Shown here: in pieces, positions 1-6,160 of the stretch
How the letters are laid out: each line of letters starts with the position of its first letter
Numbering within the stretch: the first letter of the stretch is position 1
Assembly: GCA_963665115.1 (NCBI GenBank)
Contig: OY762007.1
Location: forward strand, 1,728,001-1,792,000
Length of the DNA stretch: 64,000 nucleotides
Origin: an uncultured Rivularia sp.
GTDB lineage: Bacteria; Cyanobacteriota; Cyanobacteriia; Cyanobacteriales; Nostocaceae
Direction of reading: 5' to 3'
Made by a program: the position numbers and the translations under genes
The notes under the pieces: generated by a model
Databases searched by the model: none
Told to the model about the DNA's origin: nothing
Seen by the model: the letters and a program-made list of their open reading frames with translations, nothing else

Positions 1-2410
1 AATACTTAACTCGCATTTTCGGATTAGATGAACCGTTAGTCCATAAAGTAATTTCTTGCGTTTGTGGATTCCAGCTTACTGTATTTAACTTCCCTGCTAC
101 CGTTGTTTTATCCTGAGTTGAAAGAAAAGCATGAATAATTGGTGCAACTTCCAATGTACGATTAGCTTGAACTTGTTGTACTAATAAAAACTTATTTTCG
201 GAAGGCTCATTTTGTTGGATTATACTCCACTCTTGGGGATACTCTACCGTACTCGCATCAATTACAACTTTTGCTGCTGAAGGTGGAGCAGCGGTAATTT
301 TACCTTTGACGGTGTAACCCTGTATCAGAATATTATGAGCTTTCAATACTGCTGTAAGTTTCTCAAATGATTCGGGTTTTAATTCTCCCAACTTCTTGTC
401 TTTAATCATTGCAATTCCGATATTTGGTTTCTGAGAATTTTTACTAGGTTTAACGGAAATAGTAACAGTAGCTTGATAACTCTGTTTGTTCCAATCCACA
501 TCAGCGAAAGCTCCTGATTTTAATTTATTTACCTCGATTGAATTGCCTTTTGTTGTAGTAATAATTACCTGCTGTGCTTTTGCTAATCCTTCGGAAACTT
601 GTTCGGATGTAATAGTATTATTTAATTCTGACTCCTGTGCTGGAATTAAGTAATCCTGAAAAGCATTTTTTGAACTTTGATTTTCATAATTTAAACGACG
701 ATTATATTCGCTAAAATCATTTAATAACTCTCGTAAATGTTCCGCTTCTTTGGGCAAATTATCAGAAGCACATCGAGCAAGATTAGCTGATAAATTTGCT
801 AAAAATGTTCTTTGTTCGTTGGCAGGAATTTGACTACACTCCGATTCAATTGCAATTGCTTTCATCGCTAAGTTAGCCACAATCCCAATGTTGTCATGAG
901 CAGCTTCCAAAGCTATCTTCTCAAAACTTCCACAGTAAGCTGCTTTTTGAGGTAAAACACTTTCTGGATAACGGTTTTCTGGTTGAGTTTTGAACTGAAT
1001 TTCCTCAGTTGTGCTGGGAAAATCTTGAGCCAATGCAGTTAAAGGTTTATCACCATCGCAGTCACTATTAAGAGCCGTTGCTGTGCGACGATTGAGTTTA
1101 ATACTACCGGGATGGATTTCTTCTCCTTCTAATAAGCGATTCGTAAGTACTGCCATTACGTTGGTATTACCAACTGGGGGACGATGATATAAAACTTTCG
1201 CACCATTGGGTTTAGTGCGATCGCAAATCTCCCAATCTTTCAAGCGGTTGCAAGTCATCAGCATTGATGACTGAAATTTGATAATTCTTCCAGTAGCACA
1301 ATCTCTATATTGTTCTTGAAGATGTTCTGAAAGAAAATTAATAACCTTTGGTGTTTCGATAATTTGCAGATGTCCTTCTAAATCAGCTTTGAGAAGTTGA
1401 TACATTAATTCAGTATCGTTATCTCCAAAAGCTTCGTTAATCACATCTCCAAAATCATCCAAATCAAAATCATGTATTAGCTTACTTCCGGTTTCTCTTT
1501 TAAAATCACCTGCGAGTCTTCTTTCCACCGTTTGAATATAATCTAGTGCAACCTTACGCGGGTCATTCGCAATACTATCTAATTGTGCTAAACGCTCTTG
1601 TACCCTGGGTAAAGCATCATTTTTTGCACCTTCAGACAATCCTACCCAATACTGAGCGCCCGTTGCAGCTTCTACGGTGCGAGCATTTTCGCGATTACCA
1701 ATACCGATTGTAAGAGTGTATTCTCCCGGTTCCACTTCTGTTTGTCGATTAATTCGTATCCCGGTTTTCTCATTGTAGAGTTTATTTTTGCGTCCCTTAC
1801 CCAATTGAGATTTAGAAAGCACCAAATCATAACCGCTTCCGATACTAGAAAGATTAACTGGTGCTAAAGTACCTTTTATTGTTTGGTTAGCGTTGATTCC
1901 CTCCTGGGACTTAATAATTCCTCTTACCTGGAACTGAGCAGAAGGAATATTACCTAACTTTTCGTGCAATTTATGGTCAATCCGTCCATCTCCATCTCCC
2001 ACAAGTAACAAAGCCTGTTCTTCTGGTAAAACCCCACCACACTTCCCAGTTTCATCATCTACAATCAACACTTTAATATCTTCGACTTCAGCAAAATACT
2101 CGCATTCGCCAAATAGTAAAGAACCATATGCAGAACCGAAATGTGGCTCGTCAAAAATTTGTAACCGTAATCCTGGTTTATCGGAGAAATATAATCGGTC
2201 TTTTTTGGAAAACTGAAGATACTTATCCTGATGTTTCGTTAAATCATCCTCAGTTGAAATTCCAGGATAAACAATGCCGATACTCCACTTAACATCATTA
2301 CCATAAAGATACTCCGCAGCAGTATTTTCCAAAGTCTCGATTAAAGGTTTACCATCAACTTCGATGGGTTTACCTGTTTTGGTACAGAAATATTCTAGAG
2401 CTATTGACAT
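1..2410 (-). CDS. Single-subunit two-barrel (double-psi beta-barrel) RNA polymerase-like protein, cellular RdRP/YonO-like; 3'-partial, at least 803 aa
   Basis: Translated by hand, open from ATG 2410 (SD GAGG upstream) to the window edge. Ordered motifs: VGDGDGRI (aa ~137-144), PSAQFQVRG, IKGTL, LSKSQLGK, VLYHRPP, NSDCDGD (nt 1049-1069), DNIGIVAN. Confidence 0.85.
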   Translation of the reverse strand, partial: MSIALEYFCTKTGKPIEVDGKPLIETLENTAAEYLYGNDVKWSIGIVYPGISTEDDLTKHQDKYLQFSKKDRLYFSDKPGLRLQIFDEPHFGSAYGSLLFGECEYFAEVEDIKVLIVDDETGKCGGVLPEEQALLLVGDGDGRIDHKLHEKLGNIPSAQFQVRGIIKSQEGINANQTIKGTLAPVNLSSIGSGYDLVLSKSQLGKGRKNKLYNEKTGIRINRQTEVEPGEYTLTIGIGNRENARTVEAATGAQYWVGLSEGAKNDALPRVQERLAQLDSIANDPRKVALDYIQTVERRLAGDFKRETGSKLIHDFDLDDFGDVINEAFGDNDTELMYQLLKADLEGHLQIIETPKVINFLSEHLQEQYRDCATGRIIKFQSSMLMTCNRLKDWEICDRTKPNGAKVLYHRPPVGNTNVMAVLTNRLLEGEEIHPGSIKLNRRTATALNSDCDGDKPLTALAQDFPSTTEEIQFKTQPENRYPESVLPQKAAYCGSFEKIALEAAHDNIGIVANLAMKAIAIESECSQIPANEQRTFLANLSANLARCASDNLPKEAEHLRELLNDFSEYNRRLNYENQSSKNAFQDYLIPAQESELNNTITSEQVSEGLAKAQQVIITTTKGNSIEVNKLKSGAFADVDWNKQSYQATVTISVKPSKNSQKPNIGIAMIKDKKLGELKPESFEKLTAVLKAHNILIQGYTVKGKITAAPPSAAKVVIDASTVEYPQEWSIIQQNEPSENKFLLVQQVQANRTLEVAPIIHAFLSTQDKTTVAGKLNTVSWNPQTQEITLWTNGSSNPKMRVKY

Positions 2411-2462: not shown

Positions 2463-2802
2463 TGTAAGCAAACAATAAAGTTGTAAACTGGCAGGCATCC
2501 TAAAGCCTTGATATTACGTTGACATTTACAATTTTACTCAAAATAAAGTTGTAAACTGTTTGGGTGTAAAACTGTTGGTTAATAAGAAACCGTAAACAAT
2601 AAAGTTTATTACTGTCACATTAATTATTAGCTCAAAACCAGAAGAGTTTTTACTAAAAAACGGTTAACAAGTCTCAAAAGTTATAGTTCAAGATTCTTTC
2701 TCCAAATCAAATCCCGATTCCTATATGTGACAGTTAGTTTATGACTTTACGACCTAGTTTACGAGTTTACGTCTTAGTAATAAACTTTATTGTTTGGGTT
2801 CA
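2463..2802. mobile_element. Miniature non-autonomous Tn7-like element (both ends, no genes)
   Basis: Left end TGTAAGCAAACAATAAAGTTGTAAACT with spaced TnsB-like sites at 2470, 2538 and 2594. Right end (reverse complement) TGAACCCAAACAATAAAGTTTATTACT with three contiguous 20-bp sites at 2736-2795. No 5-bp TSD. Confidence 0.7.
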
Positions 2803-3525
2803 ATCTACGAACTTACGCTTTGTCGGTGGAGTAGCCCAAATAACACAATGTCCAGACTTTGCTTTACGTCCGTACTGGGATAAAATCACACCCAATCTTT
2901 GAGCATCTTTGACGCATTCCCCGTTGTCCAAATAACCTCTGTTCCAATCAATCAAATTTCTAGCAAATTTTCCTTCCTTAGAAATCGCCCATTTCATTGC
3001 TTCCAACTCATCCCAGGTCAAAGTACTTGATTGCACCTTTGTATATCCACCACTTATCATCCCAGCAATCCAGGGAGGCGTTAAAATTCCCATGATTGCA
3101 CCGACTCCCAGGGTGAAAAATAATAATAAACTTGCCGGAAGTACAGAAGTTAAAAGTTTTCGGCTTTCTGTAAACTGTGCTTTGCGAATCAGAGCGTGAG
3201 CGGCTCTATCAATAGCAACTTTCTGACGTAATACCGTAACTTTTTCCACTTCTTGCAAGTTGCGAGCCAAATCTTGATTCCAGGTTTCAAACAACAGTTG
3301 CAAAACGGACGGCGCATTTGTCAACATTGCTTCTAATTGTCCGGTAGCTACCAAAATTAGAAACAAAGGGTCATCTTGAGATAAACCACAGCTTACAGCA
3401 AAACTCAATACCTGCTTTTTAAACTCTTCGCTTTTACCATTTAGAGCTTCAGCCAAAAACTTATTAACTTGGTCATTTTCTTCCCGATTTGAGTTTTTAT
3501 CGCTGGGAGCAACTTCCTGTGTCAT
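2800..3525 (-). CDS. Membrane-anchored mobilisation-associated hypothetical protein (DUF6753-like, tentative)
   Basis: 241 aa, DDPLF motif, one TM segment, overlaps the stop of the upstream P-loop gene. Confidence 0.55.
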   Translation of the reverse strand: MTQEVAPSDKNSNREENDQVNKFLAEALNGKSEEFKKQVLSFAVSCGLSQDDPLFLILVATGQLEAMLTNAPSVLQLLFETWNQDLARNLQEVEKVTVLRQKVAIDRAAHALIRKAQFTESRKLLTSVLPASLLLFFTLGVGAIMGILTPPWIAGMISGGYTKVQSSTLTWDELEAMKWAISKEGKFARNLIDWNRGYLDNGECVKDAQRLGVILSQYGRKAKSGHCVIWATPPTKRKFVD

Positions 3526-5025: not shown

Positions 5026-6160
5026 TTATGCTACCTCAGCAACCGAATTTGAACCAGACATGAAATACAAAAACATTCCATAAGCATCTGTAAGTCTCGT
5101 TCCTAATTTGTACGTATCTACAGCATCGGGAACCACAACCCCACCGTGCCAAATGCAAGGTGTAGCAGAATAACGAGAATTGAGTTCTTTCTTCAAATAA
5201 TCTGCTGTACCTCCACAAAATACTATTTCGTCAATATCGCGAGGAACTACATTGCTTAACCAGGATATTAGCGTTGCGATATAAAGATTTCTCGCTTCTT
5301 TTATTGCCGTTACCAGTGCTGCTACTTCCTCATTGCGAGCTGCAACCGTAGTGCTACGAGTTAACTTATACAAAGGGACTAGGGCTGATATCGTACCCGC
5401 TCGCAACTATAGCTCTACATAAATCAGATTCAGATAATCCACTGGTTTTAGTCATAACGGTTTCTATCATCCGCACCATACCTAAATCCGAAGTTTTACC
5501 GCTGTCTAATGCTCCCCGATAGCTTACCAAAACTGAAGCATTGCGATATCCAATCATGATTATTGCGCTTTTGCGTTGCCCAATCTCTACCCCTACTCGT
5601 TTTGAATGAAGTAGAAATACTCCCGCACCTTCTGGATAACAATTAAATCGTCCCAACTCCAGTGACATATCTCCTGAAGGGGTTTCAAAGTTTTTGAGAA
5701 GGGAGCGCAGAATATTTTCAAATTTCTTTCTGGATTCATATTCATTAGCTGGAAGCAATACACACAAATCGAATTTGAAACAATTGCTCAACTTCAGCTT
5801 TTGCGCTAAAACCCAAACACTTGCCAAAGCTTTGTATAAACCTCGTTCGTACTTAAGCTCTTTCAATCCAGCATTTGCATAAAAGCGCGATGCAGCTAAG
5901 TATCCAACCGCTGCATACTTTCCTCCAAATCCCACCCAAGCAGCATTTGTAGGTTCGCATACTCCTAAATTATTTTGTAATAAGTCATCAATAGCAGCTT
6001 TGGGTACTGCAATTACTTCCGGTTCCATAAATAAACTCCCAATTTTACCGTCAGTGCTTGTATAAATTGCTTTCAAACCGCTACCACCAATATCAGCCGC
6101 GAGAGTTAATTGAACCGGAGTACTATTTTTTTGTTCTGTTTTTCGATTATTTTTACCCAT
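5026..6160 (-). CDS. parM: ParM/StbA actin-like segregation ATPase, split by a frameshift near 5385
   Basis: ADIGGS, YPEGAG and IGYRN in 5366..6160; FCGGTA in 5026..5406; the two ORFs overlap. Confidence 0.8.

Follow-up and report, generated by a model that had tools for sequence, protein, structure and literature searches.

The window analysed here, i.e. the whole stretch of 64,000 nucleotides, carries close to its first position a gene-less segment of 340 bp, which lies between the 3' end of a gene for a DUF6753 protein and a long downstream open reading frame (Table 1). The segment starts with TGT and finishes with TCA, giving termini of the TG...CA kind, TGT at the left and TGA at the right, where the full-length elements described below likewise lack the third base of TGT. 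Its 20-bp inverted repeat (2594-2613 and 2776-2795) is free of mismatches; no inverted repeat with separate arms exceeded 14 bp when the segment was dinucleotide-shuffled 1000 times. Four sites match the terminal site of the full element L016 in at least 15 of 19 positions, compared to at most one in every one of 1000 dinucleotide shuffles, and the two inner right sites are variants (12/19 to the terminal site). The sites lie 8, 76 and 132 bp inside the left end and 8, 28 and 48 bp from the TGA. The same geometry is found in L016 (8, 75 and 131 bp at the left, 8, 28 and 48 bp at the right), and the same offsets recur in related Tn7-like elements, i.e. the first TnsB site is located 8 bp inside each end, with spaced sites on the left and abutting ones on the right. 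Counted from its right end, positions 1-159 of the segment correspond to the right end of L016 and positions 165-340 to its left end. The left part is 86% identical across 176 bp to the tnsD-side end of L016, and the first 80 bp of the right end match the tnsA-side end in 71/80 positions, or 73/80 in the case of L105. A preliminary description, made from the letters alone, had claimed a gene-less mini-Tn7 of 340 bp with a perfect 20-bp repeat, three spaced left sites and three 20-bp right sites. Its coordinates and anatomy are borne out, the repeat exceeding the shuffle maximum and the sites, with the terminal ones 8 bp in, being recovered by site matching.

Table 1. Features at the insertion site (window coordinates).
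Feature	Position	Strand	Basis
Non-autonomous mini-Tn7, 340 bp, no ATG-started ORF >20 aa	2463..2802		Sequence, alignment to L016
Left end: TGT and three spaced 19-bp TnsB-type sites (2471-2489, 2539-2557, 2595-2613)	2463..2613	+	Site match
Right end: TGA and three sites with 20-bp period (2794-2776, 2774-2756, 2754-2736)	2736..2802	-	Site match
Terminal TGA of the element, in-frame stop of the target gene	2800..2802	-	Allele comparison
Gene-side flank TAGAT, imperfect target-site copy	2803..2807	-	Flank reading
Far-side flank AGAAC, the 5-mer duplicated in L011 and L009	2458..2462	-	Flank reading
DUF6753 gene (target), 241 aa	2800..3525	-	Pfam PF20538, E 3.7e-95
Best-conserved target block, S-G-H/F-C-x-I/V-W codons, 34-54 bp from junction	2836..2856	-	Column conservation
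Downstream long ORF (860 aa), cut off by the window edge; 389 bp away from the stop and not part of the element	2..2410	-	ORF call

Relatives of the DUF6753 protein are encoded on 36 cyanobacterial plasmid records, 19 of them typed as conjugative and 10 as mobilizable, and the gene belongs to the backbone of conjugative plasmids and islands in cyanobacteria. The gene of the window clusters with those of a MobV relaxase and a coupling protein and with a weak, sub-cut-off match to VirB4. A ParM-like backbone gene is split into two ORFs in the window (5026-6160, minus strand), whereas the plasmid relatives have a single ParM/StbA gene. A fourth, distant copy of the backbone in the same genome (G000:C1:6055179-6062086; DUF6753 34%, polymerase 43%) has no end at its gene. 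The downstream ORF contains the motifs YHRPP and NSDCDGD, which we take to be those of double-psi-barrel polymerases; a Pfam search with it returned no match, and it counts 860 aa within the window versus about 1259 aa in relatives. RdRP-like enzymes are mentioned in bacterial selfish elements (PMC3417536). Since neither a promoter nor a terminator was found in a search of positions 2380-2900, an effect of the miniature element on the downstream gene is unsupported.

Comparison with related backbones confirms that the segment is a real insertion of a non-autonomous Tn7-like element. A search with the gene alone yielded 18 loci, 17 of which have the 3' end; nine of these are empty and eight filled (L017 read by eye). 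The backbones without the segment include genes 92-98% identical to that of the window. In one of them (L007, protein 98% identical) the gene runs straight into the sequence past the element, reading ...GTAGAAC CGTAATATGAGG where the window has the additional 340 bp. Contigs from three of four sequencing runs, one of them 11.9 kb long, join position 2459 to 2804. The protein ends in ...KFVEP* in the empty allele and in ...KFVD* in the window, where the end of the element supplies the stop of the ORF (...KRKFVD*), as had been read from the sequence before. Altogether, 36 gene ends were examined, 26 filled and 10 empty, several of them near-duplicates; the filled sites are kin and not independent draws, and 26/36 is no estimate of occupancy, because the set includes loci found by their ends.

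Perfect 5-bp duplications flank nine of the 16 two-ended copies and involve eight different 5-mers; an additional one was read by eye in L009. In the stacked copies L108 and L110 the duplicated 5-mer lies between the copies. Seven of the 16 have no duplication, among them the window copy (TAGAT versus AGAAC), and three of these seven are one identical allele. The earlier observation that the flanks (GTTCT and ATCTA on the strand shown) are not a duplication was therefore correct, but it is specific to the window copy, most two-ended relatives being flanked by one. The unmatched flanks stem probably from repeated insertion or from recombination between sister islands. An earlier insertion as the source of the T in the GAT codon of the window was considered as well; it fits L016 and is not needed, L077 duplicating TTGAT.

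The tnsB-bearing element with the same ends, named beforehand as a check on the assignment, exists: L016, a transposon of 7161 bp, is inserted at the same codon, shares the ends and has four ORFs, namely tnsA (PF08722, PF08721), tnsB (PF09299), tnsC (AAA_22, TniB) and tnsD, whose product of 653 aa contains PF06527 and PF15978. A second full element, L151 (7521 bp, duplication AGAAA), encodes Tns proteins 69-77% identical to those of L016 and sits at a gene with 47% identity to the DUF6753 gene of the window. The TnsA and TnsD of L105 (duplication CCCCC) are 98% identical to those of L016, with a deletion across tnsB-tnsC. L105 is located in a different backbone, at a gene 66% identical to that of the window, compared to 89% for the gene at L016. 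Both L016 and L151 encode TnsABC plus TnsD, of which the window copy encodes none. Other deleted forms measure 543 bp, about 3.4 kb, 320 bp and 170 bp, and miniatures have thus arisen several times.

The genome itself contains two further copies, of which the first is full-length and the second measures 216 bp. They, too, lie at 3' ends of DUF6753 genes, which are only 61-64% identical to that of the window. No TnsB of the L016 type was found in this genome (completeness 99.93%), and a search of it with the L016 TnsD at E 1e-40 gave nothing; since no helper was found, the window copy is probably at rest. The sole TnsA/TnsB match is the TnsAB fusion of a CRISPR-associated transposon (CAST) at tRNA-Ala (G000:C1:6732806-6762576), an element with two TniQ/TnsD genes, Cas-like genes in an apparently interrupted cas region and the duplication CCTGG. 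At G000:C1:5914947-5914980, and also in L108, L109 and L114, a right-end remnant with one site follows the miniature after a 5-bp spacer. This remnant adjoins a small cysteine-rich ORF and is older, a record of repeated insertion at the site.

As to its spread, the 340-bp form is probably the product of a single internal deletion. One interior is common to nine copies of this length. Likely, the form was then moved in trans by a full element sharing the cell, as the pattern of duplications suggests, and its flanks were probably also reshuffled by recombination between co-resident islands. An unlikely alternative is that it is a dead remnant which arose in place and was spread by homologous recombination or gene conversion only, maybe being kept via target immunity. 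In its favour, one genome houses three sister islands, the copies whose flanks do not match resemble mosaics, and many sites are right-end-only or decayed (L017, L019, L022, L024, L075). Moreover, TnsD proteins with at least 70% identity are encoded in 2 of 389 genomes as against end matches in 16, and mini-elements in the att site cut insertion of Tn6022 from about 100% to about 2e-5% (PMC11014353). The window copy is itself ambiguous in this respect. It is 97.9% identical to the miniature of L109 while their genes are 66.2% identical, and the two pair with support 100/99 in the tree of the miniatures across branches of 100/100 in the gene tree; as both members of the pair are without duplication, recombination fits this conflict as well as transposition does. 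Against a remnant, however, speak four 340-bp miniatures with perfect duplications, which comprise three 5-mers, two insertion phases and both clades of host genes (L011, L015; L108, L116), and the interior, which is only 76% identical to the right-end interior of the parents yet common to the miniatures. Immunity must be at least leaky, since stacked copies exist.

The family was found at one site and in one orientation. A 27-letter pattern, built from these ends and hence restricted to this family, but blind to the flank, was searched over 389 family genomes and gave 27 matches in 16 of them, all at the DUF6753 locus, against 0 in the control. Of the 15 right ends, 14 adjoin DUF6753 and the last follows another copy at that locus in a stack. 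Of the 12 left ends, 10 belong to copies adjoining DUF6753, and the other two are next to the same polymerase gene, on contigs whose ends fall within the element. All three metagenome matches (one repeats L018) and the sole plasmid match are at the same site as well, and viral contigs searched for the ends gave 0 matches. No end of this family is present at seven distant DUF6753 genes of plasmids (35-47% identity) or at the fourth homologue of the genome, in a check of plasmids that covered 11 of the 36 records.

The right end faces the gene in all 26 filled sites and deviates from a fixed codon by no more than one base. In 23 cases its TGA serves as the in-frame stop; two copies are shifted by +1 and one by -1, and the reading frames of these three terminate within ten codons, still inside the end. 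Where the duplication reveals the empty state, the gene has lost no residue in L105, L107 and L116, one in L015 and L077, and two in L151. Nearly all related elements at other genes start with TGT, and one, at ruvC, starts with TGA. The TGA start suits the DUF6753 site, selection for it being not provable as one lineage only is concerned. The preliminary description had the element land in an integrative and conjugative element (ICE). The insertion stands, but it was no chance landing, the attachment site being fixed across genera. The window cluster is only a putative ICE, with no tyrosine integrase match near the window copy and the closest resolvase match about 100 kb away.

TnsD is the chromosomal homing protein of Tn7-like elements, which reach conjugative plasmids by other routes, namely TnsE, CRISPR guides or resolvase-bound res sites. 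Since a full TnsD is the only target selector of the parents, the most economical account is that it reads the gene directly, and the family is always at the DUF6753 end likely because its targeting protein reads that gene. We regard it as quite probable that the segment represents both ends of a Tn7-like tnsABCD transposon that has lost all its genes, located at a fixed site in the last codons of DUF6753 and likely placed there by TnsD, whose reading of the coding end of DUF6753 we infer. In detail, TnsD of the parent would bind within the coding sequence of DUF6753, some 25-55 bp ahead of the stop, and load TnsC, and TnsAB would insert the element with its right end towards DUF6753. The end beginning with TGA would usually land in frame, the gene keeping its stop and losing zero to two residues; since the stop is kept, the carrier is probably unharmed and would spread the transposon by conjugation. 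The best-conserved target block (Table 1) is predicted to be part of the TnsD site from its position, by analogy with attTn7, where the site bound by TnsD comprises the final 36 bp of the glmS frame and spans +23 to +58 relative to the insertion (PMC2918618); the conservation of the block may also reflect constraint at the protein level alone. Insertion of Tn7 is likewise site- and orientation-specific and generates a 5-bp duplication (PMC2918618).

Instead of reading the coding sequence directly, TnsD could recognise a protein or structure of the conjugative element near the gene end, as in Tn5053. This would suit the location of the target on a mobile element and the divergence of up to about 35% in DNA among the target genes, and the only TniQ of Tn5053 serves plasmid res sites (PMC11406308). 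We consider such indirect targeting improbable, however, since the parent TnsD is full-length with its C-terminal PF15978 region present, the insertion is within one base of the fixed codon in 26/26 sites whatever lies downstream, and related TnsDs are found at the 3' ends of glmS and ruvC. The chance that a CRISPR-associated transposon inserted the segment is very remote: the genome does have the I-B2-type TnsAB-fusion element with Cas-like genes at tRNA-Ala, but the ends of the latter read TGTGACTTTACCCATAAC, unlike those of the miniature, neither cas genes nor an array are present in the element, and L016 and L151 leave no room for cas genes. Accordingly, the former assignment to a MITE-like Tn7/CAST derivative holds for Tn7 and not for CAST, the parents carrying only tnsABCD. 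Lastly, a cis-acting site native to the conjugative element (an oriT, a centromere or an operator) which happens to resemble Tn7 ends has a negligible probability and is ruled out by the empty alleles, for although all three close islands of the genome carry the segment at the same place, the comparison to uninterrupted homologues that had been proposed found it missing from 9 of 17 related backbones, so that it is no universal oriT or centromere, and the same ends flank tnsABCD in L016.

In a TnsD tree (quick, with a short search), the three TnsDs with genomic context, i.e. those of the parents, form one clade with P0002, P0003 and P0005 (SH-aLRT 100). The latter, with 63-80% identity, come without genomic context, and their elements could sit at genes other than DUF6753; beyond them identity is at most 51%. 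The sisters of this clade include the first TnsD of the tandem-tnsD elements L152 and L153, and the nearest TnsBs (55-58% identical; FastTree) belong to the tandem-tnsD group and to one plasmid element. L151 keeps a fragment of 54 aa of a second tnsD; its origin from the clade found at ruvC is not supported, its best match being another TnsD (68%, against 55-57% for the ruvC-clade proteins).

In seven cyanobacterial tandem-tnsD elements the right end is located at the 3' end of ruvC (L178:15585, L180:18136, L182:2778, L184:11763, L186:15115, L188:4866, L190:11432); one of the genes was confirmed as RuvC, and four of the seven elements have a matching left end with a perfect duplication. An attachment site at ruvC is not named in the literature searched. 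The second TnsDs of the tandem elements form one tight clade in the quick tree and the first ones are diverse; judged from these sequences, it is possible rather than probable that proteins of the tight clade direct their elements to ruvC, the variable TnsD being the one that finds mobile DNA. Elements with TnsDs of another clade (L163:4201, L166:12202, L167:9862, L168:11081) lie 22-28 bp behind a gene for 162-188 aa ending in ...WGQPFG, for which there is no NCBIfam match, and L165, with a TnsD identical to that of L166 and from the same genome, is at a different gene. Two related elements (L059:12529, L064:9928) are located at the 3' ends of RecD-like helicase genes, possibly another target on mobile elements. 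On an Oscillatoria plasmid (L174:3145-3165), just past the DUF6753 stop, an 18-base match was found to an end, with its flank, of the TnsAB-type CAST from the genome of the window, and a second Tn7 lineage may have hit the same DUF6753 spot.

The DUF6753 family resembles Tn7 at attTn7 in the separate TnsA and TnsB, the TnsC and the full-length TnsD of its parents (E 2e-25 to TnsD of Tn7, PDB 8GLU), in spaced left and abutting right sites, and in insertion next to the 3' terminus of a conserved gene, always in the same orientation and with a 5-bp duplication; cyanobacterial relatives with TnsDs 33-48% identical are found behind glmS. Unlike Tn7, it targets a gene of conjugative elements and not a chromosomal housekeeping gene, its right end starts with TGA, L016 has neither tnsE nor cargo, and insertion is at or just before the stop, compared to about 20 bp past the glmS stop in Tn7 (PMC2918618). 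With Tn5053/Tn402 it has in common one protein of the TniQ family and a target on mobile DNA (PMC11406308); it differs in having TnsA and a full TnsD, in the lack of a resolvase among the four ORFs of L016, and in a codon site precise to a single base. Tn7-like elements of cyanobacteria whose insertion is directed to plasmid and chromosomal CRISPR arrays (Chacon Machado and Peters, 2025, PMC11837452) are likewise minimal and cargo-free, with a single TnsD and a target on plasmids, but have fused TnsAB, a shortened TnsD and CRISPR repeats as target instead of split TnsA/TnsB and a protein-coding target. A link to the dual tniQ-tnsD loci (Faure et al., 2023, PMC10293859), of which 1,048 were counted, is given by the sister TnsDs, which are first in a tandem pair, and by the second-tnsD fragment of L151, whereas L016 and L105 have one TnsD; a conjugative-element gene is not named as a TnsD target in the available text of that study. 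Prokaryotic MITEs are similarly short, gene-less, flanked by inverted ends and a duplicated target and in need of a helper. The window copy, too, is short, has inverted ends and lacks coding capacity; in contrast to MITEs, it is derived from Tn7, with asymmetric multi-site ends and one attachment site, and is not dispersed, each of the three copies in the genome being at the same gene.

In a review of 2024, glmS, tRNA, parE, comM and yhiN are given as sites of TnsD/TniQ proteins, and plasmids are reached via TnsE, CRISPR guides or res sites (PMC11406308); nrdB has been added, in a study which also reports target immunity by a mini-element (PMC11014353). A survey focused on the TnsAB-fusion clade (PMC9881144) lists TnsAB-fusion elements in its supplement, with neither DUF6753 nor ruvC, and the available text of PMC8649781 makes no mention of non-autonomous elements. 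Neither DUF6753 nor its insertion site was found in the openly accessible literature searched. Tn7 targeting of a fixed site on a conjugative element instead of a chromosomal housekeeping gene is thus apparently new, an earlier description being possible. Since new attachment sites turn up often in the Tn7-like family, the surprise is moderate.

It is quite possible, if somewhat short of probable, that these elements represent a Tn7 lineage which has given up homing to the chromosome and is confined to conjugative elements. Its TnsD would directly recognise the sequence of a conserved backbone gene and so take the place of TnsE, and the right end would have evolved TGA so that insertion in the last codons restores the stop. 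Such a lineage would descend from dual-TnsD elements, with one TnsD directed to ruvC and a variable one to genes of mobile elements, and its 340-bp miniatures, which outnumber the parents, may shield their carriers by immunity.

A family that has TnsD only and a fixed site in a conjugative backbone, with empty, full, miniature and stacked alleles in public data, offers a ready test of protein-guided targeting of mobile DNA, as well as a handle on the role of the second TnsD in tandem pairs. The natural ends of 340 bp together with an orthogonal site might moreover serve for integrating DNA into cyanobacterial plasmids. If true, descent from dual-TnsD elements would give the tandem tnsD pairs a function.
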